Source of the DNA: Candidatus Nomurabacteria bacterium | GTDB lineage: Bacteria > Patescibacteriota > Saccharimonadia > JAGOAT01 | Assembly (NCBI GenBank): GCA_020639315.1 | Contig: JACKGM010000002.1 | Coordinates: 286,321-350,320, forward strand | Direction of reading: 5' to 3' | DNA: 64,000 nt | Shown here: positions 3,511-58,940 of the stretch, piece by piece | Layout of the letters: each line of letters begins with the position of its first letter | How positions within the stretch are numbered: position 1 is the stretch's first letter | The notes under the pieces: generated by a model | Seen by the model: only the letters and a program-made list of their open reading frames with translations | Told to the model about the DNA's origin: nothing | Database searches by the model: none | Position numbers and translations under genes: made by a program

Positions 3511-3537
3511 CGTTACCTCCGATTAAATTAATACCCA

Positions 3538-9672: not shown

Positions 9673-9836
9673 TATAGCAAACTCAAAACAAAACCGGACA
9701 ATTTGAGCTGTACTATAGAGAACTAGAAAGGTAGTTATTCTTAAGAGCCATATCCATAGATATGGTGAGTAAGAAAACTAGCTTTATAGACTCTAGAGTT
9801 GGGTCAAAAGTCTGGTTTTGTTTTTAACTTGCTATA
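9673..9836. mobile_element. MITE-A copy (164 bp, long imperfect palindrome)
   Basis: Ends are TATAGCAAACTCAAAACAAAACC and GGTTTTGTTTTTAACTTGCTATA. The two ~80-bp arms are mutually complementary around a central CCATATC-CATA-GATATGG hairpin. Near-identical copies at 43360 and 58728. Confidence 0.8.
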
Positions 9837-27900: not shown

Positions 27901-27952
27901 TATAGCAAGCTCAAAACAAAACCGGACAATTTGAGCTGTACTATAGAGAACT
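27901..27952. mobile_element. truncated MITE-A (left ~50 bp only)
   Basis: TATAGCAAGCTCAAAACAAAACCGGACAATTTGAGCTGTACTATAGAGAACT is identical to the left arm of full copies, after which similarity is lost. Confidence 0.7.
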
Positions 27953-28063
27953 ATAGCCCCCGTAAAACAAAACCTGTTTGTTTTGGGTGATTAGATTATC
28001 GATCTAGAATTGTCGGATGCAAAAATCCTATTTATATCATGCTATAATTGCTATAATAAAATC

Positions 28064-29591: not shown

Positions 29592-29655
29592 TTCGGGGTC
29601 TGACCCCGAACCCGACCTATATAACAGATATAAATGGTCGGGGTCTGACCCCGAA
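29592..29655. repeat. REPIN-like doublet R5
   Basis: TTCGGGGTCTGACCCCGAA...AACAGATATAAA...TCGGGGTCTGACCCCGAAG. Confidence 0.85.
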
Positions 29656-29737: not shown

Positions 29738-29814
29738 AGGGGTGTAGCTCAGTTGGCTAGAGCATCGGTCTCCAAAACCGAGGGCCGCGGGTTCGAATCC
29801 TGCCACCCCTGCCA
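29738..29814 (+). tRNA. tRNA-Trp (anticodon CCA), CCA end encoded
   Basis: The cloverleaf was folded by hand. Acceptor AGGGGTG/CACCCCT, anticodon arm TCGGT-CTCCAAA-ACCGA, T-loop GGTTCGAATCC. Confidence 0.95.
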
Positions 29815-29898: not shown

Positions 29899-29949
<51 letters not shown>

Positions 29950-29973
<24 letters not shown>

Positions 29974-30083
29974 TACAGAATTTCACACAATGCATTTGAT
30001 AATCTCAATCTAGACTAAATTCTACCTTGGGCTACTAGTCTCAATTTTAACTGAGTTTTGAGTTTACACAATTTAGTTTATAA
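29950..30083 (+). repeat. att-like repeat copy A (tRNA-Asn 3' end plus ~110 bp downstream)
   Basis: Homologous to 31721-31854. The 24 bp GTTCGAATCCTCTCCCCGGAGCCA are identical, and the downstream TTGATAATCTCAATCTAGACTA...GAGTTTACACAATTTAGTTTATAA is ~85-90% identical. Confidence 0.8.
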
Positions 30084-30361
30084 TCTCTGCCCTTGGGGTT
30101 TTAAGAGAATTTGAACAAAGGTTAAGTAAATCTTTACCAGAATTAGGCTTATCGTTGGTTTAGAGAAGCTACACTCTATTAAGACTTACAGTTTAAAATT
30201 ACCAGATGGCTCTACAGTACCCGTAGATACAGACTTAACAAAAACACAAAGTATCTTGATGAAGTTATCTAGGGCGTGATTTGGGTGACCTAAACCGTGA
30301 AGTCAGGAACATCGTCGCGCCCATTTTTTGTATATCTCTAGCTTTTAGCTATCGTCCATAG

Positions 30362-31414
30362 CTACTTCTTTTTATAGCGCGTTGTTCGTCCTTGACCAAT
30401 TCGTTCCACTTTTTTGATATCAAGCAACCTGTTGAGTGCCTGAGACACCGTTGCCCTGGCTACCCCAGTTTTATCTGCAATCTCACCTGGCATGGCTTCT
30501 TCAACAGTCTGCAGATAACGCCAGACCTTGATTTGCTGGGGCGACAGGGTTTTTTCTAGGTTTTCATTTTCAACCAGCTTTATTGCTTGCTGAGCCTGCT
30601 CTAAAAGAAGCCCCAGAAAATAGACAGTCCAGTCGTTTATAGAATCGTCTTCAGTGTCAAAGGTTGCTTGACTTCTTCGTAGTGCCAAATAGTAGTTTGA
30701 CTTACTTTGTTCGACTAGTTTCTCGTGTGAAACGTATGGGGTGTATTCATAGCCTCTAGACAAAAGCAAATAATTAGTTAGCAGCCTTGACATACGGCCG
30801 TTGCCATCTAAGAATGGGTGAATCTTTAGGAAAGATACAATAAAGTTGGATATGATCAACAAAGGATGGTATTTGTTCTCGTGTAGAGCTTCAGTGTACC
30901 AGTCTACAAGTTCTTGCATTTCTTTGGGGGTTAGATACGCGGGAGTAGTTTCAAAGATTACCGCCAAAATATTACCTTCAACATCAGTCATCTCTACCTT
31001 ATTTTCTAGGTTTTTGTATTCACCTTTGTGCCAAACATCTTTGCTGGAGTATTGCAGCAACTGAGCGTGTAAATATTTGATTGTATTTTCGCTAAAATCA
31101 ATCGATTTATGGTTATCAAAGATAAATTCTAGTGTTTCATAGTAGCCTTGAACTTCTTGGGTGTCTCTTTCTGAAAATTTCTGTATTTTGAGATTGTCTA
31201 TATATTCTTCAACATCAGTATCAGACATTTCTGAGCCTTCGATACGTGTTGAGGAGCCAGTCGAGGTAATCAACGTAGAGCGCTTTAATGTACCCAGAAT
31301 CTGCGGGTTTAAGTTTGTCTTTCCAGACCATCGTCCTTTTAACTCATCTATCTGAGCAACAAGATTAATAACTTCCTTGGGTAACTTTTCTATACGCTTG
31401 TCATTGCTATTCAT
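30362..31414 (-). CDS. Fic/DOC-family protein with C-terminal winged-helix DNA-binding domain
   Basis: Canonical Fic motif HPFLDGNGRMSRLL. The C-terminus GEIADKTGVARATVSQALNRLL is HTH-like. Confidence 0.9.
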   Translation of the reverse strand: MNSNDKRIEKLPKEVINLVAQIDELKGRWSGKTNLNPQILGTLKRSTLITSTGSSTRIEGSEMSDTDVEEYIDNLKIQKFSERDTQEVQGYYETLEFIFDNHKSIDFSENTIKYLHAQLLQYSSKDVWHKGEYKNLENKVEMTDVEGNILAVIFETTPAYLTPKEMQELVDWYTEALHENKYHPLLIISNFIVSFLKIHPFLDGNGRMSRLLTNYLLLSRGYEYTPYVSHEKLVEQSKSNYYLALRRSQATFDTEDDSINDWTVYFLGLLLEQAQQAIKLVENENLEKTLSPQQIKVWRYLQTVEEAMPGEIADKTGVARATVSQALNRLLDIKKVERIGQGRTTRYKKK

Positions 31415-31502
31415 AATCTAATATAGAGTATATATGAGATTATATTAGATTACAAGAGATTAACGCCAAAAAAACTTGATTAATCTACAAATGGAACTAA
31501 GA

Positions 31503-31686
31503 TATAGCAAGCTCAAAACAAAATCCAATTCCCTGACTAAGATAATAGAGAACCAGTAGTTGAGTTCTTCTACTGAATCATATCCATGATATGGTGAAGG
31601 AGAAAACTCAGTCTAATGGACTCTAGTGTCTAGTCAGGAATTGTGATTGATAGAAATATCTGATTTTGTTTTTAACTTGCTGTATA
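31503..31686. mobile_element. MITE-A subfamily-2 copy (184 bp), uninterrupted
   Basis: Ends are TATAGCAAGCTCAAAACAAAATC and GATTTTGTTTTTAACTTGCTGTATA. Collinear with the 50071-50419 copy except for the MITE-B insertion there. Confidence 0.8.
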
Positions 31687-31720
31687 AAAGCCATACAGAG
31701 GCAGGTTATCTATGCCAAAA

Positions 31721-31854
31721 GTTCGAATCCTCTCCCCGGAGCCAAGTTGAATTTTACAAAATACGGTTGATAATCTCAATCTAGACTAGATTCTACCCTA
31801 GACTACTAGTCTCAATTTTAACTGAGATTTGAGTTTACACAATTTAGTTTATAA
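31721..31854 (+). repeat. att-like repeat copy B (displaced 24-bp tRNA-Asn 3' end plus downstream homology)
   Basis: See copy A. It also shares 39 bp (GAGCCAAGTTGAATTTTACAAAATACGGTTGATAATCTC) with copy C at 38500. Confidence 0.8.
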
Positions 31855-31952
31855 CTCAGTTCTGTGATCTGAGGCGAAATTCATATGACCAATGTCATAA
31901 TTCATACTAGCAGGATTTGAGGAGGTGCGAAACTCGTGTACAATAATGTTAT

Positions 31953-32135
31953 ATGGCAAACGACAAACTACCAGAGTATCTAACACTAAGTGAAGGGAGT
32001 AAGATGCTAAAAGTGCATCCAAACACCCTATGCAACTGGGATAAGAGTGGTACGCTCAAGCACATTCGGATTGGCGAGCGTAAGATACGCCGATACAAAA
32101 AAGAAGATGTACTAAAGTTTTTGGAGCTGAATTAG
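31953..32135 (+). CDS. excisionase-family helix-turn-helix DNA-binding protein (HTH_17/MerR-like)
   Basis: 60 aa. LTLSEGSKMLKVHPNTLCNWDKSGTLKHIRIGERKIRRY is typical of Xis/AlpA-type HTH proteins. First gene of the island operon. Confidence 0.7.
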   Translation: MANDKLPEYLTLSEGSKMLKVHPNTLCNWDKSGTLKHIRIGERKIRRYKKEDVLKFLELN

Positions 32136-32795
32136 ATGCGATTGTTAAACCACCAACCTGGTGAGCTACAAGAGAAGCTATCTGAGTACCTCAAGAAAGA
32201 CGCACTTTATAAAGCAGTTTTTGAATACACAAAAAGCCGATTTGAAAAAGCAAACCATTTGCCAGCACATAATTGGTCACACGCTTACAGGGATACCTTG
32301 AATGCGATTGTTATAGGCGAAGCAGAAAATGCAGATATGGCTATTGTTTTGCCAGCGATAACTATGCACGATATTGGCTTCCTGTACGGTGCTAGTGGTA
32401 AAACACACGGGGCTGTCGGTGCTGACAAGCTGGCTGAATACCTAAAAGAAGGTAACATCCAGTATTCTGATGATGCCATTGAAAAAATCGCTGCCTGCAT
32501 ACGTACCCATAAAGGAAGTATGCACAATGAAAAACCTGAAAGCTTGGAGGCGAAAGTTGTCGCAGATGCAGATTTACTTGAGAAGTTTGGACCATTTGGC
32601 GTCTACCAGAATATACGTACATTTACTGAGTTTAATTGGGCATTAGAGAAAAACCTTGAGCGTGCAACACAGATATTCAACCTAACTCTTGAAACTGGAA
32701 CAGGTAGACGATTAGCAGAGCCTGGCAGAAAATTTGTAGCTAATTTCTACAACCAACTAGCGGAAGCTTATGAACCATATCAGGAGCAGGAGTGA
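32136..32795 (+). CDS. HD-domain phosphohydrolase
   Basis: H...HD pattern (HNWSHAYR ... ITMHDIGF ... RTHKG ... DADLLE). Confidence 0.7.
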   Translation: MRLLNHQPGELQEKLSEYLKKDALYKAVFEYTKSRFEKANHLPAHNWSHAYRDTLNAIVIGEAENADMAIVLPAITMHDIGFLYGASGKTHGAVGADKLAEYLKEGNIQYSDDAIEKIAACIRTHKGSMHNEKPESLEAKVVADADLLEKFGPFGVYQNIRTFTEFNWALEKNLERATQIFNLTLETGTGRRLAEPGRKFVANFYNQLAEAYEPYQEQE

Positions 32796-33274
32796 CCGAC
32801 GAAGACTTTATCAAACTAGCCATTCAAGCTGCTAAAGATGCTGAGGCATCAGGCGGTGCTGCGATTGGGGCGATAATGGTCAAAGACGGTAAGGTTATCG
32901 CAAAAGGTTGGAGTAACCCCTACGGTAAGCGTGACCCGTCAAATCACGGCGAGATTGACTGTATCCGCAATTGTGCCAAAGAGAACGACTTGATGGATAT
33001 GCAAGGATGTACTTTATATGGAACACTTGAGCCTTGCTCTATGTGTACTGGTGCGGCATTGTGGGCTGGAGTAGACAGAATAGTATTCGGTGCATATGCA
33101 GCCGATGTAGCTGGTAACGACTACGAATATGATGATTATAGTTCTGAAAAATTAGCAAAGACTTCAAGAAAGTTAGCCGACCCAAGCCGAGGCAACATTG
33201 AGGTTGTTGGCGGCGTACTACGTGATGAGTGCAAAGAACTGCTTAAAGACTACAAAGGTTGGCAGAAGCAATGA
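32792..33274 (+). CDS. CDA-fold nucleoside/nucleotide deaminase (TadA/guanine-deaminase-like)
   Basis: HGEIDCI (H[AG]E) and LEPCSMCTGA (PCxxC) zinc-binding motifs. GTGA overlap with the upstream gene. Confidence 0.85.
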   Translation: MTDEDFIKLAIQAAKDAEASGGAAIGAIMVKDGKVIAKGWSNPYGKRDPSNHGEIDCIRNCAKENDLMDMQGCTLYGTLEPCSMCTGAALWAGVDRIVFGAYAADVAGNDYEYDDYSSEKLAKTSRKLADPSRGNIEVVGGVLRDECKELLKDYKGWQKQ

Positions 33275-33849
33275 AAAATGCAATCCTAGTTCCTGGCAGA
33301 CCAGATAAAGACGAATACTACGACCCAAAGTATCCAACCAACAGTAATGGACACTGGTTTCCTTGGTTGTCAAAGCAGTTACAAATCAATGATGTGTTTG
33401 CCGTGGCTATTGAACCGCCAAAACCTTGGCAACCAAGATATGATGTTTGGAAAAAAGAGTTTGAAAAGTTTGATATTACGCCTGAAACTGTCTTGGTAGG
33501 TCATAGCTGTGGTGGTGGTTTCCTGGTTCGCTGGCTCAGCGAGAACAAGGACAAAAAGGTTGGCAAAGTCATATTGGTCGCTCCTTGGCTAAATCCAGAG
33601 AACAACCCTGTTTCTGACACGGCTGACTTCTTTGAGTTTGAGATTGACCCAGACTTGGTTAGCCGCACTGCTGGCGTGACTATCTTCAATTCCGACAACG
33701 ACCAAGCAACGATACACAAGTCCGTTCAAATCATTCGTGATGAAGTCAAAGATGTTAGCTACAAAGAGTTTCACGACTATGGTCACTTCTGTTTTGAGGA
33801 TATGAACACCGAGGAGTTTCCTGAGCTAGCTGAGGAAGCGATAAAGTGA
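33271..33849 (+). CDS. alpha/beta serine hydrolase, YdeN/RBBP9-like
   Basis: ILVPGRPDKDEYYD...WFPWL...LVGHSCGGGF...ILVAPW. The start is placed at the ATGA overlap (33271) rather than the track TTG at 33259. Confidence 0.55.
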   Translation: MKNAILVPGRPDKDEYYDPKYPTNSNGHWFPWLSKQLQINDVFAVAIEPPKPWQPRYDVWKKEFEKFDITPETVLVGHSCGGGFLVRWLSENKDKKVGKVILVAPWLNPENNPVSDTADFFEFEIDPDLVSRTAGVTIFNSDNDQATIHKSVQIIRDEVKDVSYKEFHDYGHFCFEDMNTEEFPELAEEAIK

Positions 33850-34961
33850 GTGAGCAAATGACGAACCTTGATATGGAAAAAATCAATGCAGGTATAGCCG
33901 ATAGAACGGATGTTTTCTACTGGCAGACAGACCGTGCTGTTGACCCAGTCGAAGCTGGACATATCTGGGCAGACAGACACAGATACTTTACTGACAGTGA
34001 GCTGGTTGAGCGAGTAAACACGGCATTAAGTGACGCTAAACTAGCTGGTATTGAGCCACTGGACTTAGATGCTCAGACCAACCTAGGTAACGTAAACTCT
34101 GTTCGTGTAGGAACACTTGTGTCTGGTAAAGAAGTAATCTTGCGATGCCATCCAAAAGGTGTACGCAACGGTTATTTCCACGCCGAGGCAGCCGCATCAC
34201 ATCTTGCAAAAGAAACTGGCTTACCAAGCTACGATACGCTTGCTGTTCACGATTACGAGAACGGCGAAGACTTTGCCTTCCACGTCCTGGAAAAACTCTC
34301 AGGCACAGCTATCAAGAAGTGGCTTGAAGCTCATCCTGATGACGAAGCAGCCTTATTGCCTCAAATTGGCAGGATGATGGCACGACTACATCAAGTAAAA
34401 GTTGATGGTTTTGGACCATTTGATAATGAATGTGCTAAAACTGGTGAGCTTGTTGGGCTACACAAGACATTCGGCGAGGCAGTACGAGCTGGTTTGCCGT
34501 TTAATCTAGATGTATTGCAGAAAGAGGGCGTACTGACTGACGAGCAAACATCTGCCATTACTAAGTTGTTTGGCGACGACAATCCTTTGCTTACACTTGA
34601 ACAAGGTGTCTTGGTTCATAATGATTTTGCTGACTGGAACTTGCTGACTGACGGCAAAGACGTGACAGGTATTTTGGACTGGGACGAATGTGTGTCTGGT
34701 GATGCCGTTAGCGACATTGCTTGTTGGAGTACGTTCTTTGACCCTGAGCGATTAGAGGGTTTCTTGGAAGGCTATTGGCAGGTTGCGGATAAGCCATCCG
34801 ACTTCCAAGACAGGTTTGAGCTACTACGCTTACGATACGTGTTGTCTAAGATGACACTTCGTTTACGTCGCTATACCTGGGAACAAACTGACTTTATGCG
34901 TGAAAAAATTGAAACGGGTAAAGTACACTTGGCTCAATCAATGGAGTACTTTGGGATATGA
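33846..34961 (+). CDS. aminoglycoside-phosphotransferase (APH)/choline-kinase-family small-molecule kinase
   Basis: Brenner motif VLVHNDFADWNLL followed by GILDWDE. Size 371 aa. Confidence 0.75.
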   Translation: MSEQMTNLDMEKINAGIADRTDVFYWQTDRAVDPVEAGHIWADRHRYFTDSELVERVNTALSDAKLAGIEPLDLDAQTNLGNVNSVRVGTLVSGKEVILRCHPKGVRNGYFHAEAAASHLAKETGLPSYDTLAVHDYENGEDFAFHVLEKLSGTAIKKWLEAHPDDEAALLPQIGRMMARLHQVKVDGFGPFDNECAKTGELVGLHKTFGEAVRAGLPFNLDVLQKEGVLTDEQTSAITKLFGDDNPLLTLEQGVLVHNDFADWNLLTDGKDVTGILDWDECVSGDAVSDIACWSTFFDPERLEGFLEGYWQVADKPSDFQDRFELLRLRYVLSKMTLRLRRYTWEQTDFMREKIETGKVHLAQSMEYFGI

Positions 34962-35503
34962 AATTATACAGATTTAGTCCAATAGAGAATAAGGCGAGCC
35001 TGATAGAAGCCGTCAAATATACACACTTTGCCTGTTATGAACTTTGTAAGCAATCCTTTGGCTCATACTTACCTAACGCAGGTAATATGGGCATCTTTTG
35101 CCATTACGACGATGAATTTGAACAGCTTGTAACAATCCGCAAGGAACTGACAGAACCCTCTGATGACCCAAATCAGAAGTATTTCAAGCTACACGAACCG
35201 ATTGTTGTGCCTGAGCAAGATGGCGTACCAGAAACAACCTACACACATTTGTACATCCGAAAGCCAGACCCATATCGTCATCACGTTGGCGATGTTGATT
35301 TTTATCTTGAGCAACAGCAATACGATGAGCTGAAACAGTCGCTCATTGACGGCAAGCAAGTAAAGGGTGCAAGAGTATTCCCACGCAATGACCTGGATAT
35401 GGTTGAACTTTATGACCCTGATGTTGATGCACTTGGCTATGTAAGCACCAACACAATGACCGAGAAAGTAAGAATAAAACTATCTGACGAAACAAAACTA
35501 TGA
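34958..35503 (+). CDS. hypothetical protein (181 aa)
   Basis: ORF with ATGA overlaps at both ends. No motif recognised. Confidence 0.5.
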   Translation: MKLYRFSPIENKASLIEAVKYTHFACYELCKQSFGSYLPNAGNMGIFCHYDDEFEQLVTIRKELTEPSDDPNQKYFKLHEPIVVPEQDGVPETTYTHLYIRKPDPYRHHVGDVDFYLEQQQYDELKQSLIDGKQVKGARVFPRNDLDMVELYDPDVDALGYVSTNTMTEKVRIKLSDETKL

Positions 35504-36390
35504 GTAAGATTGCCGTAATTGCTGATGTACACCTTTTGCCTGAAACTCAGGAATTGATTAGCCAGTTATCCGCAACTACACTCGCTTTTCCGTCACAAGA
35601 CACTCAGCCAAGTGCTGATGAGCTTATTGAACGTACTGCGGATGCAGATGCCGTGTTAGTTAGCCCAGGAACTAAAATTACCGAGGAATATCTTAGTTCC
35701 TGTCCGTCCGTTAAATACATAGGCATTTGTGGTACTTCAAAGGAAAATGTTGACCTAGATGCTGTTGAAAAACGGCACATTACTCTTACGAACGTAGTTG
35801 ATTACGGCGATGAGCCAGCAGCTGAGTTTATCTTTATGCAACTTGAATACCTTGTCAGAGGTATGGGTCAGAACCAATGGAAAGATTATCCAACTGAGCT
35901 TATGGGCAAGAAAATGGGAATTATCGGCTTAGGTGCTTTAGGCACAGCTATTGCAAACCTGGCTCTGGCATACAAAATGGATGTTTCTTATCACAGCAAA
36001 ACGAGGAGGCCAGAGCAAGAACAACTTGGAGTTTCATATTCTGAAAAAGATGAGCTACTAAAAACCTGCCAAATCATCGTAATCTGCACACCTAGCAACC
36101 TTGTTGCAATTTCCAAGGACGATTTTGAACTTATTCAGTCCAATGTCATCATCGTTCAGGCAAGTATGGGTATGTGCCTAGACCAAGGAGCATTTCTTGA
36201 TTGGATAAAACAAGATAGCAACTTTGCATTGTTTGACTACTCGGCTGGTAACGAAAGCTACGAAGCCTACAAAGATTTACCAAGAGTTATTTTCCCTAAG
36301 GTTATCGCTGGTCACACTCAAGAAACCAAACAAAGACTTGGCGATAAAGTAATTCAAAACCTCAAGAAATATCTTGAAGGAAATGTATGA
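35500..36390 (+). CDS. D-isomer-specific 2-hydroxyacid dehydrogenase family protein
   Basis: NAD-binding GIIGLGALGTAIA (GxGxxG) and the overall two-domain layout. Confidence 0.75.
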   Translation: MSKIAVIADVHLLPETQELISQLSATTLAFPSQDTQPSADELIERTADADAVLVSPGTKITEEYLSSCPSVKYIGICGTSKENVDLDAVEKRHITLTNVVDYGDEPAAEFIFMQLEYLVRGMGQNQWKDYPTELMGKKMGIIGLGALGTAIANLALAYKMDVSYHSKTRRPEQEQLGVSYSEKDELLKTCQIIVICTPSNLVAISKDDFELIQSNVIIVQASMGMCLDQGAFLDWIKQDSNFALFDYSAGNESYEAYKDLPRVIFPKVIAGHTQETKQRLGDKVIQNLKKYLEGNV

Positions 36391-37049
36391 GCAAGCACGT
36401 AGTAATCTATTCACACGGTTTTGGTGTTCGCAAAGACGATAGAGGCTTGTTTACTGATATTGCCGATGCCATACCAGAAGCAAACCACGTGATGTTTGAC
36501 TACAACCACGTTGATGAGCGAGCAAATACGCTCACAGTCAGCCCATTACAAGAGCAAGTTCAAAAGCTCAGAGAGCAGCTTGAAAAGATTGAGGGTGATG
36601 CAATTATTGACGTTGTGGCACACTCCCAAGGTTGCCTCATAGCAGCACTTGCGAAACCACAGAATGTTCGGCAGATACTATGCCTTGCACCGCCAGATAA
36701 TGTGGACACCGAACGGCTAATCAACTTCTTCGGAAACCGTGAAGGTAGTATCGTTGATTTGGAAGGTCAATCACGAATACCCAGATGTGACGGCACTACA
36801 ACCATCATCCCTTCTGCATATTGGCAGAGCTTAAAGGGACTTGATGCCATTCGCTTATACAATCGCTTACCAGACTTAGCTAAGGTTAAGTTCGTAATTG
36901 CCAATGACGATGAAGTGCTTGGTATGAGCAATTTTGACAATACTGACGAACGCATTGAATTAGCTCAACTAGACGGCAGTCACGATTTTACAGATGAAGC
37001 TAGACAACCATTGGTTGATTTGGTTAGAAACGAGCTACTGAATGCCTGA
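36387..37049 (+). CDS. alpha/beta hydrolase
   Basis: VIYSHGFG (oxyanion region) and VAHSQGC (nucleophile elbow). A late GSHDF supplies the candidate His. Confidence 0.6.
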   Translation: MSKHVVIYSHGFGVRKDDRGLFTDIADAIPEANHVMFDYNHVDERANTLTVSPLQEQVQKLREQLEKIEGDAIIDVVAHSQGCLIAALAKPQNVRQILCLAPPDNVDTERLINFFGNREGSIVDLEGQSRIPRCDGTTTIIPSAYWQSLKGLDAIRLYNRLPDLAKVKFVIANDDEVLGMSNFDNTDERIELAQLDGSHDFTDEARQPLVDLVRNELLNA

Positions 37050-37422
37050 TGCGAAACAAAAGTTTGAAGTACGTAATTCCAGTATTTCAGGGAAAGGCTT
37101 GTTTGCTACGACATTGATTAAAGCAAGTGAAGCCGTTATTTCCTGGCATCCAAAAGTACTGACACGTGAAGAAGCTGATGCCTTACCATCATCCGAGCAT
37201 CACTATCTTTATCCTGATGGCGACAAGATGCTGTATATGCAAGCACCTGAGCGGTTTATGAACCATTCTTGCGAGCCTAATACGCACGTTGTCGGCAAAA
37301 GCGATGTTGCTATACGTGATATTGAACCTGGTGAAGAAATAACCTCAGACTATATGGACTTAGAAACTGAGAACTTTATTTGTCATTGTGGTTTAGAAAA
37401 TTGTAGGGGCAAGAAAAAGTGA
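37042..37422 (+). CDS. SET-domain methyltransferase with post-SET Cys cluster
   Basis: GKGLFA, FMNHSCEPN, GEEITSDY and C-terminal CHCGLENCRG. Confidence 0.9.
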   Translation: MPDAKQKFEVRNSSISGKGLFATTLIKASEAVISWHPKVLTREEADALPSSEHHYLYPDGDKMLYMQAPERFMNHSCEPNTHVVGKSDVAIRDIEPGEEITSDYMDLETENFICHCGLENCRGKKK

Positions 37423-37431
37423 GTATATGAT

Positions 37432-38166
37432 ATGGAAAATGAATCAAACATAAAGATTAACCTTACTCAAAATCCTGACAGCAATAAAAAGCATAGACTT
37501 CTATGCGCAAGTTGTCGTAGGAAAACAAATCACACTACCCAGCAATCGTTAAGACGGGGATGGGAAACAGATGATAGCCATATAGCTGGTTACGACGATT
37601 TTCTTATTGTGAAATGCGATGGCTGCGAAACGGTACAGTTCTGCCAAATATCATCCTGCTCGGAATATTATTATAGTGCCGAAAACCCACAAACAGGCGA
37701 GATGGAAACATATTATAGTGAGAAAATTGACCAATATCCTGCGGTTAACACTTCTTATGAGAAACCAAGCACATTCCACAGTATGCCGAGCGAGATTAAA
37801 GACGCCTGTGCCGAAACCTACTCAGCTTTATGTGGCGACTTACCCAAGCTCGGAGCGGCTGGCACAAGATTGATAATTGAAACCTTGTGCCTAGTAAATA
37901 ACATTGGAAACGGCAATCTTAAGCAGAAAATCAACGCCTTGGCTAAAAAAGGTGTAATCACTGGCTCAATGAGGACAATGCTGCACAAGGTTAGGCTATT
38001 TGGGAACGACAAACTGCATACAACTGCAACCCCCAAGAAGGTTGACCTTGAGCAAGCTTGGAGTGCAGTCTGTAATTTACTTCGTTCGGTCTATGGCACA
38101 AAAGACACGACAGCCTATTTCAAGGCTTTTAGTCAAGATAAAGTAAAACCAAAGGCAGACAAATAG
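37432..38166 (+). CDS. zinc-ribbon plus DUF4145-like protein
   Basis: N-terminal CASCRRKTNH...CDGCETVQFC. The C-terminus IIETLCLVNNIG...LAKKGVITGSMRTMLHKVRLFGNDKLH resembles the DUF4145 helical domain. Confidence 0.5.
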   Translation: MENESNIKINLTQNPDSNKKHRLLCASCRRKTNHTTQQSLRRGWETDDSHIAGYDDFLIVKCDGCETVQFCQISSCSEYYYSAENPQTGEMETYYSEKIDQYPAVNTSYEKPSTFHSMPSEIKDACAETYSALCGDLPKLGAAGTRLIIETLCLVNNIGNGNLKQKINALAKKGVITGSMRTMLHKVRLFGNDKLHTTATPKKVDLEQAWSAVCNLLRSVYGTKDTTAYFKAFSQDKVKPKADK

Positions 38167-38260
38167 CTAGCCGACGAAAAACGCTTGGTAATTCTGCTCC
38201 CACAAATTAGGGATATATACGGCGGAGTGCTATTTTGGCAGAACTAAGGGCGACCACCCC

Positions 38261-38416
38261 CTAGGTATAGCTGTCAAAATCAAACGGTTCAAACTCAGGT
38301 AATTCAAGCTCAGGGAAAGGTTCAAGCTCAAGCATTACAGCCTCAAAATCTAAACTCACAAACTCTAAGTGCAAATCAGGAAGCTCCAACATTTCAAGTT
38401 CAGGAAGGTCTATCAT
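38261..38416 (-). CDS. possible 51-aa highly acidic repeat peptide (MIDLPELEMLELPDLHLEFVSLDFEAVMLELEPFPELELPEFEPFDFDSYT)
   Basis: Hand-translated ORF below the track's apparent ~60-aa size floor. Weak SD. Could be fortuitous. Confidence 0.2.
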   Translation of the reverse strand: MIDLPELEMLELPDLHLEFVSLDFEAVMLELEPFPELELPEFEPFDFDSYT

Positions 38417-38499
38417 ACTGCAACCAGTAGTTCCTTCATGGCATTTAACTTATACTCATCATAGTCCGCACTAGCAGTTCGCAACGTGTCCGCTACTGC

Positions 38500-38538
38500 G
38501 AGCCAAGTTGAATTTTACAAAATACGGTTGATAATCTC
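38500..38538 (+). repeat. att-like repeat copy C (39 bp)
   Basis: GAGCCAAGTTGAATTTTACAAAATACGGTTGATAATCTC is identical to 31739-31777. Confidence 0.75.
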
Positions 38539-38666
38539 CGATAATGGTAACTTTGAGGATCTTAAAACTAGGTTTGTTGTCAACCTAAACTTTAGGTCTT
38601 TTAGATACCGTATATAATACAAACAGATGGACGGTTTTGTTTTGAGTATGCTATACAACTTAGGGC

Positions 38667-39993: not shown

Positions 39994-40461
39994 ATGACTA
40001 AAACGGTTATCACAATTTGCTCAAGTGCAGCCTTCTATAGACAAGCAGTAGAAATACAAGACCAACTCAGCAGGCTTGGTGTCGAGGTTATAGTACCCAA
40101 AACAGCAACACGGATGAAAGAGTCTGATGATTTTGATGTTAGTCACTACAAAACATGGTTTGCCGATGCAAATGACTACCACAAAAAAGCAGAGCTCATG
40201 CGTGCTCACTTTGAGGAGATAGAGAAAAGCAATGCGATTCTTGTCCTAAATTATGAAAAGCACGGTGTCGATAACTATATAGGCGGTAATGTGCTGATGG
40301 AGATGGCCTTAGCATTTTGGCTTAAAAAGCCAATATTTATCATGAATGGACTTCCCGAAAAATCAGCATTTGAAGAAGAGATTAAAGGTATGGAACCGAT
40401 TCTATTACACGGTGATGCTAATGCTCTACCTAAACTTTATGAAGAAATAATCAGCATGTAG
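39994..40461 (+). CDS. nucleoside 2-deoxyribosyltransferase-like superfamily protein (tentative)
   Basis: 155 aa. The flavodoxin-like pattern ITICSSAAF...ILVLNYEKHGVDNYIGGNVLMEMALAFWLKKPIFI resembles NDT-like/YtoQ-like proteins. Confidence 0.35.
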   Translation: MTKTVITICSSAAFYRQAVEIQDQLSRLGVEVIVPKTATRMKESDDFDVSHYKTWFADANDYHKKAELMRAHFEEIEKSNAILVLNYEKHGVDNYIGGNVLMEMALAFWLKKPIFIMNGLPEKSAFEEEIKGMEPILLHGDANALPKLYEEIISM

Positions 40462-41007
40462 ATGGAAGAGCTTTGGCAACTCTACGACAAACAAGGTCGA
40501 GCAATAAGTAGCAAAGGGGCTACAAAAGACGATGTCTTTAATAATGGCCTACTTCATAGTTCATCGCATGTATGGATCTGGCGGGCAAGAGAAAATCAAC
40601 GAGAAATCTTGCTTCAGCAACGTGCTTCCGATAAGCATATATGGCCTAACCGTTTTGATACTTCGGCAGCTGGACATATAGATTTAGATGAAAAACCACT
40701 TGATGCAGCTATACGTGAAATAGCTGAAGAGATTGGACTTACAATAGTAGGTGATGAGCTAAACTTATTCTGTGTGCATCGAACCTATCTAAAAGCTGAA
40801 AATGGTTCGATAGAAAACGAATTCCAGTGGCTCTATAGCCTAGAGCTTACTAATAAAACTGACTTTGTTCTACAGCCCACAGAAGTAAAGTCACTAAAAT
40901 GGATACCACTTGAGCAGTTCAAAGCAGAAAACAAAAGCGAGCAATATCTTCCCCACGGTGAACTATACTACAATACAGTTGTATCTGCCATAGAGTCTGC
41001 TGAATAA
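40462..41007 (+). CDS. NUDIX hydrolase
   Basis: Nudix box GHIDLDEKPLDAAIREIAEEIGL. Confidence 0.85.
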   Translation: MEELWQLYDKQGRAISSKGATKDDVFNNGLLHSSSHVWIWRARENQREILLQQRASDKHIWPNRFDTSAAGHIDLDEKPLDAAIREIAEEIGLTIVGDELNLFCVHRTYLKAENGSIENEFQWLYSLELTNKTDFVLQPTEVKSLKWIPLEQFKAENKSEQYLPHGELYYNTVVSAIESAE

Positions 41008-41086
41008 TAATTAGACAGTACTACTCGAGTCTAGAACCCTTACAACTTTGTTTTTTACTTGGGTTGCATGATAAGATACTGTCATA

Positions 41087-41200
41087 ATGGATACAAGGGT
41101 AGACAGACTATCATCGCTTGAGCAAGTAGGCGAGCTACTTCAAGTGTACCCTAGTCCCCTGCGAAACTGGGATAAAGACAGAACACTCAGACCAATTTGA
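41087..41200 (+). pseudogene. truncated excisionase-like HTH gene (38 codons then TGA)
   Basis: Hand translation gives MDTRVDRLSSLEQVGELLQVYPSPLRNWDKDRTLRPI*. This parallels LTLSEGSKMLKVHPNTLCNWDKSGTLKHIRIG of the 31953 gene but stops early. Confidence 0.5.
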
Positions 41201-41263
41201 CTTAGTGGACAAAAATACGGCGGTATTAAGTATAATTAGATATTAAAGGAGTTAAGTGGAACA

Positions 41264-41671
41264 ATGAACAAAGATTTTATCAAAGATATTATACCTAGGG
41301 GCTACAAAACTAGAGGTAGCTATACTCCAGCTAATAAAATTGACCTGGGCAGTCATTATCTAATATTTGTGTCTGGCGTACAAGCACCGAAAAATGACGA
41401 CCACAGCGTAGTCACAGACGATATTGAAGAACAAACTAAATTTGTGTTTGAGGATATTATTAAGATTTTACAGCTGGCAGACGCAACAATTGATGATGTA
41501 GTAAAAGCGGTCATATACATTACCGATATAGACGACTTTGACAAAATATCTGCCATTAGAGGTGAGTATTTCAAGAATCCAATGCCAGTTAGTACATTGA
41601 TTGAGGTTAATCGTATGAATAGGGATGGTGCAAAGATAGAAATAGAAGTAACTGCGGTGGTAAAAAAGTGA
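41264..41671 (+). CDS. RidA/YjgF/L-PSP family protein
   Basis: 135 aa. LIFVSGVQAP...TKFVFEDIIKILQLADATIDDVVKAVIYI...PVSTLIEV...KIEIEVTA. Confidence 0.8.
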   Translation: MNKDFIKDIIPRGYKTRGSYTPANKIDLGSHYLIFVSGVQAPKNDDHSVVTDDIEEQTKFVFEDIIKILQLADATIDDVVKAVIYITDIDDFDKISAIRGEYFKNPMPVSTLIEVNRMNRDGAKIEIEVTAVVKK

Positions 41672-42258
41672 TTATTTACCTTACCAGACACGGGCAAACA
41701 ACTGGCGATATTGAAAACCGTTATGGTGGCGACTACGATGACCACTTAACTGATATAGGCAAGCAACAGTCTGCACAGTTGGCTGAACGATTATCAAATA
41801 AAGGTATTGGTCTACTTTTTGCTAGTCCGCTCATTAGGACAAAAGAAACCGCTACAGTGATAGCTGAGAGGCTGAGTCTTGTAACAAATATCTTTGATGA
41901 TTTTAGAGAACGCAACAGCTACGGTATTTTGACTGGAATGACCAAAGACGAAGCATTGCAAAAATATCCTGATCAAATACAAATACTGAAAGATGTTCGC
42001 GCTACGGTTGAAGGTGCTGAAGAGTATGCGTCGTTTCAGCAACGCATCATCAATGCTCTAGCGACTATTAGCCAGGAGCAGGTAGATAGGATTGCAATAG
42101 TAACACACGGTGGACCAATGCGCCTTATATTTAGAGATATTCTTGAACTGGGTGAGATTGATGTGGATGACTGTGCATTTGCCGTCCTTGAAGCAGATAA
42201 CGATACGTATACCCTACTAGATAAAAGTGGTATTACCATAAAGAAACAACTATCCTAA
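41668..42258 (+). CDS. histidine phosphatase (phosphoglycerate-mutase-like) family protein
   Basis: IYLTRHGQT catalytic motif, SPLIRTKETA, VTHGGPMR. Confidence 0.85.
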   Translation: MIIYLTRHGQTTGDIENRYGGDYDDHLTDIGKQQSAQLAERLSNKGIGLLFASPLIRTKETATVIAERLSLVTNIFDDFRERNSYGILTGMTKDEALQKYPDQIQILKDVRATVEGAEEYASFQQRIINALATISQEQVDRIAIVTHGGPMRLIFRDILELGEIDVDDCAFAVLEADNDTYTLLDKSGITIKKQLS

Positions 42259-42349
42259 ATTTTACCCATTACTAGGACACTCGTCCAACATTAATCCTTT
42301 CTCGTAAGCATATTGTATTACTAATCAAGATGGGTTACACTACTGGTAC

Positions 42350-43138
42350 ATGTCAGAAAATTTCAATGGGTATACTCCTGAACAAGGACCTAGTGGTATC
42401 GTTGCTATGTATCAAGATGCTACATCTGATCCTGATCGAGATCTCCCTAGCCATACTATCTTACCCCCCAATATGTGTTTTGCACTATTTAGCACCATAC
42501 TAAGGGAAAAGCAAATATCTCGTACTGGCACATATGACTATGATAGCGAGCCTCCTACAATATCCCGAGAAGCTACGGAAGATACCCATCAATATCTTGC
42601 AGAATTTTGCGAGACTAATTGCGACAGCGGGTGTGCAGTTACCCAGGCTTATAGCGATCAAGAAATACGCGAGCGATTATCGTTATCGGGTTTTCGTATT
42701 GTTCATGATAACCCAGATACGGTTACTCAGGCAGATGCTATTACCGACGCCCTAATCAGCTACTTTCAAGGTATACTGACACCCGATGAAGAACCAGATG
42801 AGTATTCATATATTCAGGGTGAGAGTTTCCTGCGGAGACTTTACAAACAAGTATGCGACGGGCTGACCACAGCAATTACTCCAGAGGTAGACGGTAATAC
42901 CTTAGCCGGTTTGATGGTAATATGTATATCCAATATACAAATATTTAAAGATATCCTAAGAAAAGTTATTATAAAAAATATGCCAAATTCAGAAGATAAA
43001 GTACCCTTAGAAATAACTCCTGCAATGATCATAGATTACTTACTAACTATGCCTCAAGATGATAGTAACGCATACTGCCTCAAAGTTACACCTAGGGGTA
43101 GTACTTTCGGGTTTCCTATCTCCCTATATAATGAGTAG
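42350..43138 (+). CDS. hypothetical protein (262 aa)
   Basis: ORF only. No motif recognised. Confidence 0.45.
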   Translation: MSENFNGYTPEQGPSGIVAMYQDATSDPDRDLPSHTILPPNMCFALFSTILREKQISRTGTYDYDSEPPTISREATEDTHQYLAEFCETNCDSGCAVTQAYSDQEIRERLSLSGFRIVHDNPDTVTQADAITDALISYFQGILTPDEEPDEYSYIQGESFLRRLYKQVCDGLTTAITPEVDGNTLAGLMVICISNIQIFKDILRKVIIKNMPNSEDKVPLEITPAMIIDYLLTMPQDDSNAYCLKVTPRGSTFGFPISLYNE

Positions 43139-43359: not shown

Positions 43360-43523
43360 TATAGCAAGTTAAAAACAAAACCAGCCTTTTGACCCAACTC
43401 TAGAGTCTATAAAGCTAGTTTTCTTACTCACCATATCTATGGATATGGCTCTTAAGAAGAACTACCTTTCTAGTTCTCTATAGTACAGCTCAAATTGTCC
43501 GGTTTTGTTTTTAACTTGCTATA
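43360..43523. mobile_element. MITE-A copy (164 bp, reverse orientation)
   Basis: Reverse complement is ~95% identical by eye to 9673-9836. It directly abuts REPIN R6. Confidence 0.8.
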
Positions 43524-43524
43524 C

Positions 43525-43589
43525 TTTCGGGGTCAGACCCCGTCATTTTATATCTGTTGGAAGGGTTCAGTACGGGGTCTGACCCCGAA
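43525..43589. repeat. REPIN-like doublet R6 (reverse orientation)
   Basis: TTCGGGGTCAGACCCCGTC...TTTATATCTGTT...TACGGGGTCTGACCCCGAA. Confidence 0.85.
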
Positions 43590-43620
43590 AAGAAGGTGGC
43601 TACCATCAAGCCCGACAACC

Positions 43621-48745: not shown

Positions 48746-49826
48746 CCTAGATTCTATTTCCAAATGCAACCTTAGCTAAGTCTAACTCACTATTAGGGTT
48801 AGAAGCAAGCCAATCGTAAACCTCTTGAGGTGTATGCCACCCTAGTCTTTTTCTAGGCTTGTTATTAAGCTCCCAGGCTATATCATCTAGCTCTTGTTGG
48901 GTTAGTCCCCTAATATCACTACGCTTAGGGAGATACGCCCTAAGTTGTCCGTTGATATTCTCGTTAGCTCCTCTCTGCCAAGAGCTATATGGATCAGCAA
49001 AGTATACCTCTATACCAATAGCTTCTGTGATTCTCTCGTGTTTAGTGAACTCAGTACCATTATCAAAGGTGATGGTATGGGCAACAAGACCTCTAAGCCC
49101 GTCTATTACTGCATTGGCTGTCTCCTCTGCTGTCTTACGGTCTAGTTTAGTAAATACTACTAAACTACTAATTCTCTCGTTTACAGTGTTAATAGCTTGT
49201 TTATGTAGGTATAAGACACTATCACCCTCCCAATCTCCTAGTCTGGTTCTTTGATTTACAACTTCTGGTCTTTTATGGATAGATACTCGATTTGGTATCT
49301 TAGACCTATGAGATGACCTACCTTGATTCTTGGTTCTCTTTTTCTTGCCTTGTCTAAGATATTGATAGAGCTTTTCCTCTTTAGCCCAAGAGCTAGTATA
49401 TATCCAGTTATAGATAGTTTCAGCAGAGACTGATGGGTGTCCTTCTTTCTTTAATCTACCTGAGATAGTTACTGGATTCCAGCCCTTCTGTAGGCAGTCT
49501 ACTACTCGACTGCGTAAACGATGATTAACTGGGTTATCTAAGATTGGTATCTGTCTAGATTCTTGTCGGTTCTCTTCATAGCTAGATTGAGCTATCCAGG
49601 TATGATAGATACCTTTACCATCAAGCCCTCTTTTGATCTCTCTACCTATAGTAGATTTATCTTTACCAATTCGCTTTGCTATTTGATTATTTGTATAATT
49701 GTCTTGGAGTAAGACTTCTATCTTACCCCGTTCTGCAGCCGTTAGGTGACTCATGCAATCCTTTCGTTTAATTGTATGTATTATTCTAACGGTTGCATTT
49801 GATATTGGAACTATGGGATCGCCATA
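48746..49826 (-). mobile_element. IS30-family insertion sequence (1081 bp)
   Basis: Imperfect 26-bp IRs (CCTAGATTCTATTTCCAAATGCAACC and GGTTGCATTTGATATTGGAACTATGG, 18/26). 3-bp TSD GAT at 48743-48745 and 49827-49829. Confidence 0.85.
48747..49754 (-). CDS. IS30-family DDE transposase
   Basis: N-terminal HTH (LTAAERGKIEVLL..NNQIAKRIGKDKSTIGREI), DWEGD, TFDNGTEF, YFADPYSSWQRGANEN. The start is placed at MSHL (49754). The track start at 49862 lies outside the IS. Confidence 0.9.
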   Translation of the reverse strand: MSHLTAAERGKIEVLLQDNYTNNQIAKRIGKDKSTIGREIKRGLDGKGIYHTWIAQSSYEENRQESRQIPILDNPVNHRLRSRVVDCLQKGWNPVTISGRLKKEGHPSVSAETIYNWIYTSSWAKEEKLYQYLRQGKKKRTKNQGRSSHRSKIPNRVSIHKRPEVVNQRTRLGDWEGDSVLYLHKQAINTVNERISSLVVFTKLDRKTAEETANAVIDGLRGLVAHTITFDNGTEFTKHERITEAIGIEVYFADPYSSWQRGANENINGQLRAYLPKRSDIRGLTQQELDDIAWELNNKPRKRLGWHTPQEVYDWLASNPNSELDLAKVAFGNRI

Positions 49827-50062
49827 TAATTTTTCTGATTCATAAGAGCAATAATTGGCCACCGACCAGGCTGCTTCATACTACTACTCTGATAGTCCAT
49901 CATCCCATACCCGAGGCCTACTCCTCCACCCATACCTTTGTAGATTGTCGGTTGACAATCCGGTGCATATTGCCGAATCAAAGCATCTACCTTACGCAAG
50001 TCAGACTCTCGCTCTCCAGTCTTGGCAAAGTATTCTTCGGCAGTCTTAGCTTCAATTTTCAT
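49827..50062 (-). pseudogene. N-terminal fragment of the IS30-split DUF1801 gene
   Basis: MKIEAKTAEEYFAKTGERESDLRKVDALIRQYAP...WPIIALMNQKNYMA. Joins in frame to the fragment at 48745. Confidence 0.75.
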
Positions 50063-50070
50063 TGTTATAT

Positions 50071-50419
50071 TATACAGCAAGTTAAAAACAAAATCAGATA
50101 TTTCTATTAATCACAATAACCCTGTTGCCATATAACCTCACGGCTTCAAAACTGCCATTTTTGCCCCAGACTAGCAAAACACTTCGCAGCGTAACTCCTG
50201 TTATGCTTTGTCGTGTTTTGGTATTCTGGAATAAAAAATCATCAGCTTTGACCTCGCAAGTTTATATGGCAACAGGGTTAATTCCTGACTAGACTCTAGA
50301 GTCCATTAGACTGAGTTTTCTCCTTCACCATATCATGGATATGATTCAGTAGAAGAACTCAACTACTGGTTCTCTATTATCTTAGTCAGGGAATTGGATT
50401 TTGTTTTGAGCTTGCTATA
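50071..50419. mobile_element. MITE-A subfamily-2 copy (reverse) carrying a nested MITE-B
   Basis: Collinear with the reverse complement of 31503-31686, except for a 162-bp insertion plus 3-bp duplication. Confidence 0.85.
50118..50279. mobile_element. MITE-B copy (162 bp) nested in MITE-A
   Basis: Same TIRs as the other copies. AAT/AAT TSD at 50115-50117 and 50280-50282. The uninterrupted target CACAATTCCTG is seen in the 31503 copy. Confidence 0.9.
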
Positions 50420-58727: not shown

Positions 58728-58888
58728 TATAGCAAGCTCAAAGCAAAACCGGACAATTTGAGCTGTACTATAGAGAACTAGAAAGGTAGTTCTTCTTAAG
58801 AGCCATATCCATAGATATGGTGAGTAAGAAAACTAGCTTTATAGACTCTAGAGTTGGGTCAAAAGTCTGGTTTTGGTTTTAACTTGCT
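58728..58888. mobile_element. MITE-A copy
   Basis: Near-identical to 9673-9836. Confidence 0.8.
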
Positions 58889-58940
58889 ATGGGATCAAGA
58901 ATTTATTTGCGACACAAGACAAAGTGTTAGTTCAATAAAA

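Follow-up and report, generated by a model that had tools for sequence, protein, structure and literature searches.

Ten overlapping genes as the probable cargo of a tRNA-targeting integrative element in Saccharibacteria

Ten genes (g1 to g10) lie head to tail at positions 31953-38166 of a 64,000-nucleotide stretch (the window) taken from a Candidatus Nomurabacteria bacterium assembly of the class Saccharimonadia. We consider it probable that they are the cargo operon of a family of tRNA-targeting integrative elements of Saccharibacteria, that their products act independently of one another, and that the combination itself is accidental. An earlier reading of the sequence (the original prediction) had taken the tight coupling of these genes to argue for a single functional unit; the genes do not, however, co-occur as a set in other genomes. 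The gene-neighborhood conservation search that it had proposed as a check was run and largely returned this lack of co-occurrence, the outcome it had itself named as pointing to random accretion.

In the scenario that we favor, an intact member of the family would have, in order, a tRNA gene, an oppositely oriented large serine recombinase gene, a small number of leftward genes and an HTH_17 (helix-turn-helix) leader; behind this leader, unrelated accessory genes would follow in one direction, overlapping at their starts and stops, and a defense-type gene would often come last. The window copy would occupy a tRNA-Asn hotspot behind a separate Fic module, between perfect direct repeats of 39 nucleotides (nt); since it carries no recombinase, it would be either decayed or mobilizable only in trans. 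A promoter directly ahead of g1 would drive a single transcript of the whole operon, with coupled translation of its genes. The products of g2 to g9 would be stand-alone enzymes, most of them acting on small molecules, for which family knowledge suggests house-cleaning or xenobiotic modification, and g10 would encode an RNase for abortive infection that resembles RAZR (ring-activated zinc-finger RNase) and carries a HEPN domain. The particular combination would have arisen by gene-by-gene gain, loss and reshuffling out of a shared pool and would form no pathway, and co-expression would serve economy rather than cooperation of the products.

The ORF (open reading frame) list of the window places ten ORFs in this segment, all on the + strand. 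They are given here with their lengths in amino acids (aa) and preceded by a promoter-like site:

31917-31944, + strand: promoter-like site TTGAGG-16-TACAAT (consensus scan only), ending 8 nt before the g1 ATG
31953-32135, + strand: g1, 60-aa HTH_17/MerR/excisionase-type protein (Pfam HTH_17, E 4.8e-10)
32136-32795, + strand: g2, HD-domain phosphohydrolase, 219 aa (Pfam HD, E 3.8e-7)
32792-33274, + strand: g3, nucleoside/base deaminase of the cytidine deaminase (CDA) fold, 160 aa (Pfam, E 7.5e-23)
33271-33849, + strand: g4, YdeN/RBBP9-type serine hydrolase (Pfam PF06821, E 1e-11)
33846-34961, + strand: g5, APH-family kinase (Pfam APH, E 5e-23; weak fructosamine-kinase match)
34958-35503, + strand: g6, 181-aa protein with a predicted YecM-like VOC fold (AlphaFold2 mean confidence, pLDDT, 90.7; Foldseek)
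35500-36390, + strand: g7, D-isomer-specific 2-hydroxyacid dehydrogenase (Pfam 2-Hacid_dh, 2-Hacid_dh_C)
36387-37049, + strand: g8, alpha/beta-fold hydrolase with an AHSQG nucleophile elbow (weak Pfam matches)
37042-37422, + strand: g9, stand-alone SET-domain methyltransferase, 126 aa (Pfam SET, E 4.9e-15)
37432-38166, + strand: g10, Cys4 zinc ribbon plus DUF4145/HEPN, 244 aa (Pfam DUF4145, E 1.5e-13)

The first gene (31953-32135) abuts g2, which starts at 32136. Start/stop overlaps of the GTGA type follow at 32792 (g2/g3) and 33846 (g4/g5) and of the ATGA type at 33271, 34958, 35500 and 36387; at 37042 the g8/g9 overlap is 8 nt long, and 9 nt separate g9 from g10 before 37432, so that the junctions measure, in order, 0, -4, -4, -4, -4, -4, -4, -8 and +9 nt. 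The ten + strand genes, their order and all nine junctions had been described in these terms in the original prediction, with which the ORF list agrees exactly, and independent gene calls on public metagenome contigs chose the same starts. Four-nucleotide overlaps make up 6 of the 9 operon junctions versus 5 of 30 among the remaining same-strand junctions of the window (P ~0.001, binomial). The operon is tighter than its surroundings, yet it is built in the same style as the rest of this compact genome.

The strongest evidence that this gene set is accidental comes from its distribution across genomes. We used g6, the HD gene (g2) and the APH gene (g5) as anchors; labels such as L004 denote the fetched comparison loci (contigs), L004 to L083 being g6 loci. 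The g6-anchored sample comprised 80 species-representative genome loci with g6 at 63-88% identity, and arrays were counted in the 76 loci beyond the window. The complete set of ten was found solely on contigs that match the window at 99.96% identity or more. When the ten proteins were searched by tblastn against the g6 loci of the 76 species-level genomes, no more than three of the other nine genes were found nearby; most loci carry none of them, and a minority carry one to three in differing orders (deaminase/g6/g8 in L004, APH/g6 in L008 and L009, g6/serine hydrolase in L013, g6/g8 in L016, HD...2-hydroxyacid dehydrogenase/g6 in L027 and serine hydrolase...APH/g6 in L028). Among the HD-anchored metagenome loci (n=14, 63-81% identity) the deaminase gene is missing throughout and so never adjoins HD, and the two closest keep a g1-like HTH gene ahead of HD. 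None of the three long APH-anchored contexts contains g6; one of them, L100, runs from a 2-hydroxyacid dehydrogenase gene through one further gene to serine hydrolase (90% identity), APH (82%) and g8 (73%), and then to a tyrosine integrase, a large serine recombinase and tRNA-Pro.

Gene calling and clustering place g6 usually within a same-strand array of 1-12 genes. Within these arrays 34% of junctions are 4-nt overlaps versus 7% elsewhere in the same loci, a comparison that is partly built in because the arrays were defined by gaps of at most 40 nt. The commonest neighbor of g6 is an APH gene directly upstream, in 5 of the 76 loci. The 150 array neighbors fall into 95 Pfam families, led by APH (9), PNPOx (7), Ldh_2 (6), Ser_hydrolase (6), 2-hydroxyacid dehydrogenase (5) and NUDIX (5) and including EamA, deaminase, glyoxalase, YCII, SDR, S51, cyclase, EEP, GNAT and HAD. 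Homologues of g6 itself number more than 1500, the top 120 at 72% identity or more; carriers are 171 of ~185,000 species representatives, and there are 153 cluster representatives at 50% identity. By contig label, 19 of the 80 g6 loci fall outside Patescibacteria and nine of these are archaeal; labels met among the g6 loci include Nanoarchaeota, Woesearchaeota, Micrarchaeota, Gammaproteobacteria, Bdellovibrionales and Vitreimonas (a 1.4-Mb contig). An identity of 63-88% across phyla, yet with so patchy an occurrence, points to repeated horizontal transfer.

The same conclusion is drawn at finer scale from the junctions. Aligned by blastn to L004, the window shows similarity that stops and restarts exactly at ATGA junctions: window segments 32793-33276, 34958-35503 and 36386-37049 align to contiguous L004 sequence, and relative to that locus the window has the serine hydrolase and APH genes between the deaminase and g6 and the 2-hydroxyacid dehydrogenase gene between g6 and g8. 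The L004 copy of g3, 94% identical, is joined directly to g6. At the protein level (tblastn), the window has g6 and the 2-hydroxyacid dehydrogenase gene between APH and g8 relative to L100, whose APH gene joins g8 directly and whose g4 copy adjoins APH. A 71-nt remnant of g8 lies in L008. Inspection of the junctions found no conserved motif beyond ATGA(A) and no intergenic recombination site, and so gave no sign of a dedicated mechanism; it is simpler to assume ordinary recombination with later selection for genes that are intact and coupled.

The element setting is clearest in relatives of the window, where the closest non-identical g6 homologues (84-86% identity) share a recurrent layout. 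In L106, the order is tRNA-Gly, a large serine recombinase gene that points the other way, several genes in leftward orientation and a g1-like HTH gene (50% identical), after which the array runs Ldh_2, a 127-aa gene, g6, APH and a reverse transcriptase-like gene; from the recombinase on, L107 matches L106 gene for gene, with no tRNA detected. L109 carries tRNA-Gly, recombinase, peptidase S51, g6 and an OLD-TOPRIM nuclease before a second recombinase module, and L108 has the L109 genes, no tRNA detected, and continues to the second recombinase module and another HTH_17-led array. The L110 array reads HTH, Ldh_2, methyltransferase, SDR, His_Phos, g6, GNAT, a 130-aa gene and ApeA-HEPN, and L111 holds its 3' part. 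Serine recombinases also adjoin g6 arrays in L005, L007, L012 and L035, although such enzymes stand beside only a minority of arrays. Same-strand tRNA genes within 3 kb upstream of arrays number 25 versus 5.4 expected (P 8e-10, 4.6-fold, 76 loci); five others lie upstream on the opposite strand and two per strand lie downstream. A g1-like HTH gene (48-64% identity) opens the differing arrays of L004, L093, L095, L106, L107, L108 and L110, so that g1 represents a leading gene conserved among these arrays. In L106, the final 27 nt of the tRNA-Gly gene (316-342) recur exactly at 455-481, which is 139 nt further downstream and within the 3' end of the serine recombinase gene, and this repeat is probably the attachment (att) site of that element.

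The window copy bears a comparable signature. The operon lies 3' of a tRNA-Asn gene and in the same orientation (tRNA at 29899-29973, g1 from 31953, both +), and the features that delimit it are as follows:

29899-29973, + strand: tRNA-Asn (GTT), anchor of the integration hotspot (ARAGORN; Rfam tRNA, 72 bits)
29950-30083, + strand: repeat copy 1 (134 nt), made up of the 3' end of tRNA-Asn and the 110 nt downstream of it; identity to 31721-31854 is 90%
30362-31414, - strand: Fic/DOC protein with a C-terminal winged HTH (Pfam Fic, E 3e-17)
31721-31777, + strand: displaced exact copy of the tRNA-Asn 3' end, GTTCGAATCCTCTCCCCGGAGCCA, then the left 39-nt repeat (31739-31777)
31778-31854, + strand: module left-end sequence, like the sequence after the real tRNA-Asn (part of the 134-nt repeat, 90%)
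38489-38538, + strand: right direct repeat, perfect over 39 nt (38500-38538), after a degenerate stretch that resembles a tRNA 3' end

The displaced tRNA-Asn 3' end is an exact 24-nt copy (31721-31744), and the 39-mer occurs exactly twice in the window, where no chance match is expected. The Fic gene is the sole gene of a 1.77-kb module (29974-31720) between repeat copies 1 and 2; that module is bounded by the real tRNA-Asn 3' end and by the 24-nt copy, and its left end is homologous to that of the operon module. By this repeat signature, this part of the window reads as two related modules integrated in tandem at tRNA-Asn, and the island setting given in the original prediction is correct. 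The 39-nt repeat is unlikely to be a duplicated promoter or a simple regulatory duplication, because its right copy is oriented toward a convergent gene and no + strand gene follows for 1.45 kb.

Several of these traits are those of tRNA-integrated islands and of recombinase-less cis-mobilizable elements (CIMEs) that accrete in tandem, namely a position 3' of a tRNA gene, a displaced tRNA 3' end, direct repeats, two tandem modules, variable cargo and, in the relatives, a recombinase beside the tRNA. The window copy differs from such islands in having no integrase and in carrying its cargo as a single overlapping operon led by a small HTH gene, and its relatives use large serine recombinases rather than the usual tyrosine integrases.

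A number of observations weigh against this account. No recombinase was found in the 64-kb window by tblastn with the L100 tyrosine integrase and serine recombinase, and the only recombination gene among the window ORFs scanned with Pfam is an insertion sequence-type transposase (HTH_38 + rve) at 48747-49862 on the - strand. No empty-site allele was found: contigs with the flanking genes (the downstream 367-aa protein) are all collinear with the window, and a search for the empty site with the upstream 513-aa protein returned no metagenome relatives and no exact record. Some linkages exceed chance, with APH directly upstream of g6 in five other species and with serine hydrolase, 2-hydroxyacid dehydrogenase and deaminase genes recurring near g6, a pattern that partial functional coupling, rather than co-transfer, could explain; APH with g6 could be one such coupled pair. 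The pool genes are under strong purifying selection, which fits important functions. The loci compared were those anchored on g6, HD and APH, and transcription of the operon as a single unit is a prediction from sequence.

Pfam bears out the domain labels that had been assigned from the sequence (HTH_17/MerR, HD, dCMP_cyt_deam_1, PF06821, APH, 2-Hacid_dh, SET and DUF4145), and the profile- and structure-based annotation suggested alongside them leaves those labels in place while giving a VOC fold to the "unknown" g6 and a match to the PADLOC profile PD-T7-4, which is RAZR, to g10. The small protein g1 matches the TIGR01764 excise and BldC models, both below cutoff. It also matches PADLOC mad1 (MADS system) at E 3e-6, and the first two genes of the L004 array (2824-3870, HTH and a 278-aa protein) weakly match PADLOC mad1/mad2 (E 1e-9/2e-10). 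The match of g2 to PRK10119 is 47 bits, where the cutoff is 286. By its matches, g3 falls in the TadA/guanine deaminase/cytosine deaminase group, with PDB entries 3OCQ, 1Z3A and 1TIY among its hits; identification as the tRNA adenosine(34) deaminase TadA was rejected at 91.7 bits, below the equivalog cutoff of 150. For g5, identity is at least 67% over the top 120 matches, one of which is source-labeled Micrarchaeota. The dehydrogenase g7 falls under cutoff for the NCBIfam PGDH and glyoxylate-reductase models, and orthologues of g8 (63-78% identity) follow g6 in L004 and L016 and APH in L100.

The Foldseek search of the g6 model against PDB gave Escherichia coli YecM (1K4N) as the best match (E 2.6e-4, TM score 0.58, probability 1.0), followed by methylmalonyl-CoA epimerases, extradiol dioxygenases, FosX/FosB and glyoxalase/bleomycin-resistance proteins; all top PDB matches are VOC proteins. 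The model thus gives g6 the paired beta-alpha-beta-beta-beta VOC (glyoxalase/bleomycin-resistance/dioxygenase) fold. The likeness to YecM 1K4N and the VOC superfamily is one of predicted fold, with no sequence-level relation found: g6 has no Pfam match at E <=0.01 (Glyoxalase and YecM included), and hhalign against E. coli YecM gave a probability of 2%, which is not significant. A literature search on YecM added nothing on function. A hypothetical protein in a metagenome-assembled genome of Candidatus Saccharibacteria has the same sequence as g6 (100% identity), and a viral origin was set aside on finding just one partial IMG/VR match.

The last gene, g10, deserves separate treatment. PD-T7-4, or RAZR, is a single-gene abortive-infection system that combines a zinc-finger domain with a divergent HEPN domain (DUF4145), has catalytic residues R146/H154 in RAZR-Ec and is triggered by ring-shaped phage proteins (Nature 2026, PMC13017515). 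In g10, the N-terminal zinc ribbon is formed by C25xxC28 and C62xxC65; the protein gives a partial match to PADLOC PD-T7-4 (E 8e-8, 30 bits, residues 54-199 on profile positions 41-157) and a full-length match to PHROG 1305 (E 4.5e-26). Its R188-x7-H196 has the same spacing as R146/H154 of RAZR, and the offset of 42 agrees with the PADLOC alignment, from which we infer that the two pairs of residues are equivalent. The Cys4 ribbon, the DUF4145/HEPN R-x7-H and the occurrence as a single gene in a mobile island are shared with RAZR; the differences are that g10 is very divergent, is longer (244 aa) and belongs to a host of the candidate phyla radiation (CPR). It is thus likely a highly divergent, RAZR-like candidate abortive-infection HEPN RNase. 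Only two homologues were found in a large protein database, and g10 is absent from every other array among the loci compared; unlike the conserved enzyme genes, it is almost without close homologues, which is typical of fast-evolving defense genes. Searches against PDB by phmmer and against phage records by tblastn gave no match, and the AlphaFold2 model (pLDDT 37.6) is unusable, so it provides no structural confirmation.

The possibility that the operon encodes a coherent small-molecule pathway, or has a core in which APH, the VOC enzyme and the 2-hydroxyacid dehydrogenase act sequentially on one substrate with the other products as accessories (for instance in repair of ketosamine/dicarbonyl damage or in modification of a host metabolite), strikes us as quite unlikely. 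It would account for the 4-nt overlap by which APH precedes g6 in the window, L008, L009 and L055 and for their adjacency or near-adjacency in L025 and L028, for the weak fructosamine-kinase match of g5 beside the VOC fold of g6, for the 2-hydroxyacid dehydrogenase gene that adjoins g6 in the window, L027 and L029, and for the higher frequency of 4-nt overlaps in the operon than in the background. The APH gene, however, is immediately upstream in so few g6 loci beyond the window, all three APH-anchored loci lack g6, and the position of the dehydrogenase gene varies from one flank of g6 to the other or to a more distant site. No fixed trio appears outside the window strain. A resistance or detoxification array, in which independent genes with integron-like content were co-selected for inactivating, gene by gene, different antibiotics or toxic metabolites that the actinobacterial host or neighboring organisms make, is a somewhat better candidate but still unlikely. 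The pool is dominated by genes for APH, VOC proteins (the fold known from bleomycin and fosfomycin resistance), alpha/beta hydrolases, GNAT, NUDIX and EamA exporters, and the nearest solved relative of g5 is hygromycin-B 4-O-kinase (its best PDB match, E 4e-5). The transposon Tn5 couples an APH gene with a VOC-fold ble gene, and its neo-ble-str operon resembles the window in having the APH-family gene followed by the VOC-fold gene in one operon on a mobile element, but the resemblance is at fold level only and the APH-g6 pairing is not obligatory. Against this explanation, no gene reaches any curated resistance-family cutoff, and PNPOx, Ldh_2, YCII, RidA, His_Phos and PheS, all in the pool, are not resistance families. 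A role of the APH gene in antibiotic modification had been put forward in the original prediction; as an aminoglycoside resistance enzyme g5 fails, its best NCBIfam match being APH(3') at 28 bits versus a cutoff of 205, and it is far below cutoff for all resistance-APH models.

A multigene anti-phage system, in which the HD protein and the deaminase would deplete or modify nucleotides and the DUF4145 protein would be sensor or effector, is highly improbable. Its attractions are the island setting, the PD-T7-4 match of g10, a weak match of the deaminase to a dCTPase model, and the ApeA-HEPN or OLD nuclease genes at the ends of related arrays; the pairing of a CDA-fold deaminase with an HD hydrolase in one operon does recall the nucleotide-depletion defenses (dCTP deaminase, dGTPase), as had been remarked of this operon before. 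That suggestion does not stand up, since g3 matches the dCTP deaminase model (NF041025/PADLOC dCTPase), which also spans a kinase-like N-terminal region, at the zinc motif only (residues 52-99), with 25 bits versus a cutoff of 400 and a length of 160 aa versus ~440-630 aa for defense dCTP deaminases, while g2 has no PADLOC match; both are small single-domain proteins that fail the family models and are unlinked in other loci. For its part, g10 is found in no other array, and PD-T7-4/RAZR acts as a single gene (PMC13017515). The PADLOC check, proposed at the outset and carried out, gave only weak single-gene matches and no described system that fits the whole operon; matches were likewise few among the 150 array neighbors, and a whole-operon defense system was rejected on these grounds. 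Very unlikely, in our estimation, is a dedicated cassette-exchange platform of ultra-small prokaryotes, in which an HTH protein and a serine recombinase would swap whole genes at the overlaps. Breakpoints relative to L004 are gene-precise without intergenic sites, gene orders are permuted, the HTH leader is conserved with a serine recombinase adjacent, and the pool is shared with DPANN archaea; but no recombination motif is conserved at the junctions, recombinases lie beside a minority of the arrays, and selection after ordinary illegitimate or homologous recombination gives the same pattern. An integron would share the compact, one-directional array of unrelated accessory genes (VOC, APH, hydrolases, GNAT, NUDIX), with single-gene turnover and an order permuted between genomes; the differences are that there is no attC, for which junctions of -8 to +9 nt leave no room, that the genes are translationally coupled, and that no IntI or other integrase was found in the window (Pfam on neighboring ORFs, tblastn). 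Literature searches found no description of such arrays. That HTH-led overlapping arrays downstream of tRNA genes form a previously undescribed, serine recombinase-associated exchange platform of cassette type, with genes from a cross-domain pool (CPR, DPANN and others) inserted, deleted and reordered at ATGA/GTGA without attC-like sites, is a speculation that we regard as unlikely.

The remaining features of the neighborhood are set out here beside the cargo operon:

29738-29814: tRNA-Trp, just upstream of tRNA-Asn
38199-38228, + strand: hairpin-containing motif CCCACAAATTAGGGATATATACGGCGGAGT after g10, the single match in the window
38261-38416, - strand: 51-aa acidic ORF (16 D/E) inside the repeat-bounded module, also called as a gene on contigs L001 and L102

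The promoter predicted upstream of g1 would yield a nearly leaderless mRNA. Solo g6 genes of other genomes have similar -10 boxes directly before the ATG (a TAAAAT/TAGAAT box 6-7 nt ahead of it in L012, L018, L020 and L024), and in L083, L065, L032, L050, L008 and L055 the g6 array starts only 2-116 nt past the end of a same-strand tRNA gene; these spacings suggest leaderless mRNAs or 5' ends made by tRNA processing. The motif after g10 (CCCAMAAATTNGG...TATACRGCGGAGT) also lies at either side of the g6 array in L005, which has three genes (motif at 6132-6162 and 7586-7616), and may be a terminator or an element boundary. The acidic ORF has a repetitive LE/PE pattern and no Pfam match, and could be a DNA-mimic-type protein or spurious.

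A second accessory run at 39994-43138 holds the same kind of content as the arrays elsewhere: a 155-aa protein gene abutting NUDIX, RidA and His_Phos_1 genes that overlap by 4 nt, and a gene for a 262-aa protein. A palindromic element of ~164 nt that resembles a miniature inverted-repeat transposable element recurs at 9673-9836, 31503-31684, 43360-43523, 58728-58891 and 50073-50419, with half copies at 27901-27953 and 38624-38655; the 53-nt copy at 27901 is 96% complementary to 43471-43523. Its terminal inverted repeats TATAGCAAGYTNAAAACAAAA have 14 matches in the window versus 0.04 expected, and its copies are up to 98.7% identical to one another, have no Rfam match and were not found in the other loci. 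One copy separates the Fic gene from the displaced tRNA fragment. A pair of GC-rich hairpins (CGGGGTCTGACCCCG, 29594-29655 and 43526-43590), which form a 70-nt inverted repeat with 81% complementarity, brackets the whole accessory region of 29.6-43.6 kb.

Gene-precise modular shuffling in the cargo arm of an integrative element is the chief point of note here, and one of moderate interest. The comparison outlines a family of tRNA-targeting, serine-recombinase elements with a modular cargo arm, whose pool of very conserved accessory enzymes, found also in DPANN archaea and some Proteobacteria, would offer a concrete route of gene flow among episymbionts. It gives a predicted fold to the widespread, uncharacterized g6 protein and identifies a highly divergent RAZR-like candidate defense gene in Saccharibacteria. 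Translational coupling in a streamlined CPR genome is no evidence of shared function, and caution is therefore warranted wherever operon structure is used to annotate genomic "dark matter."

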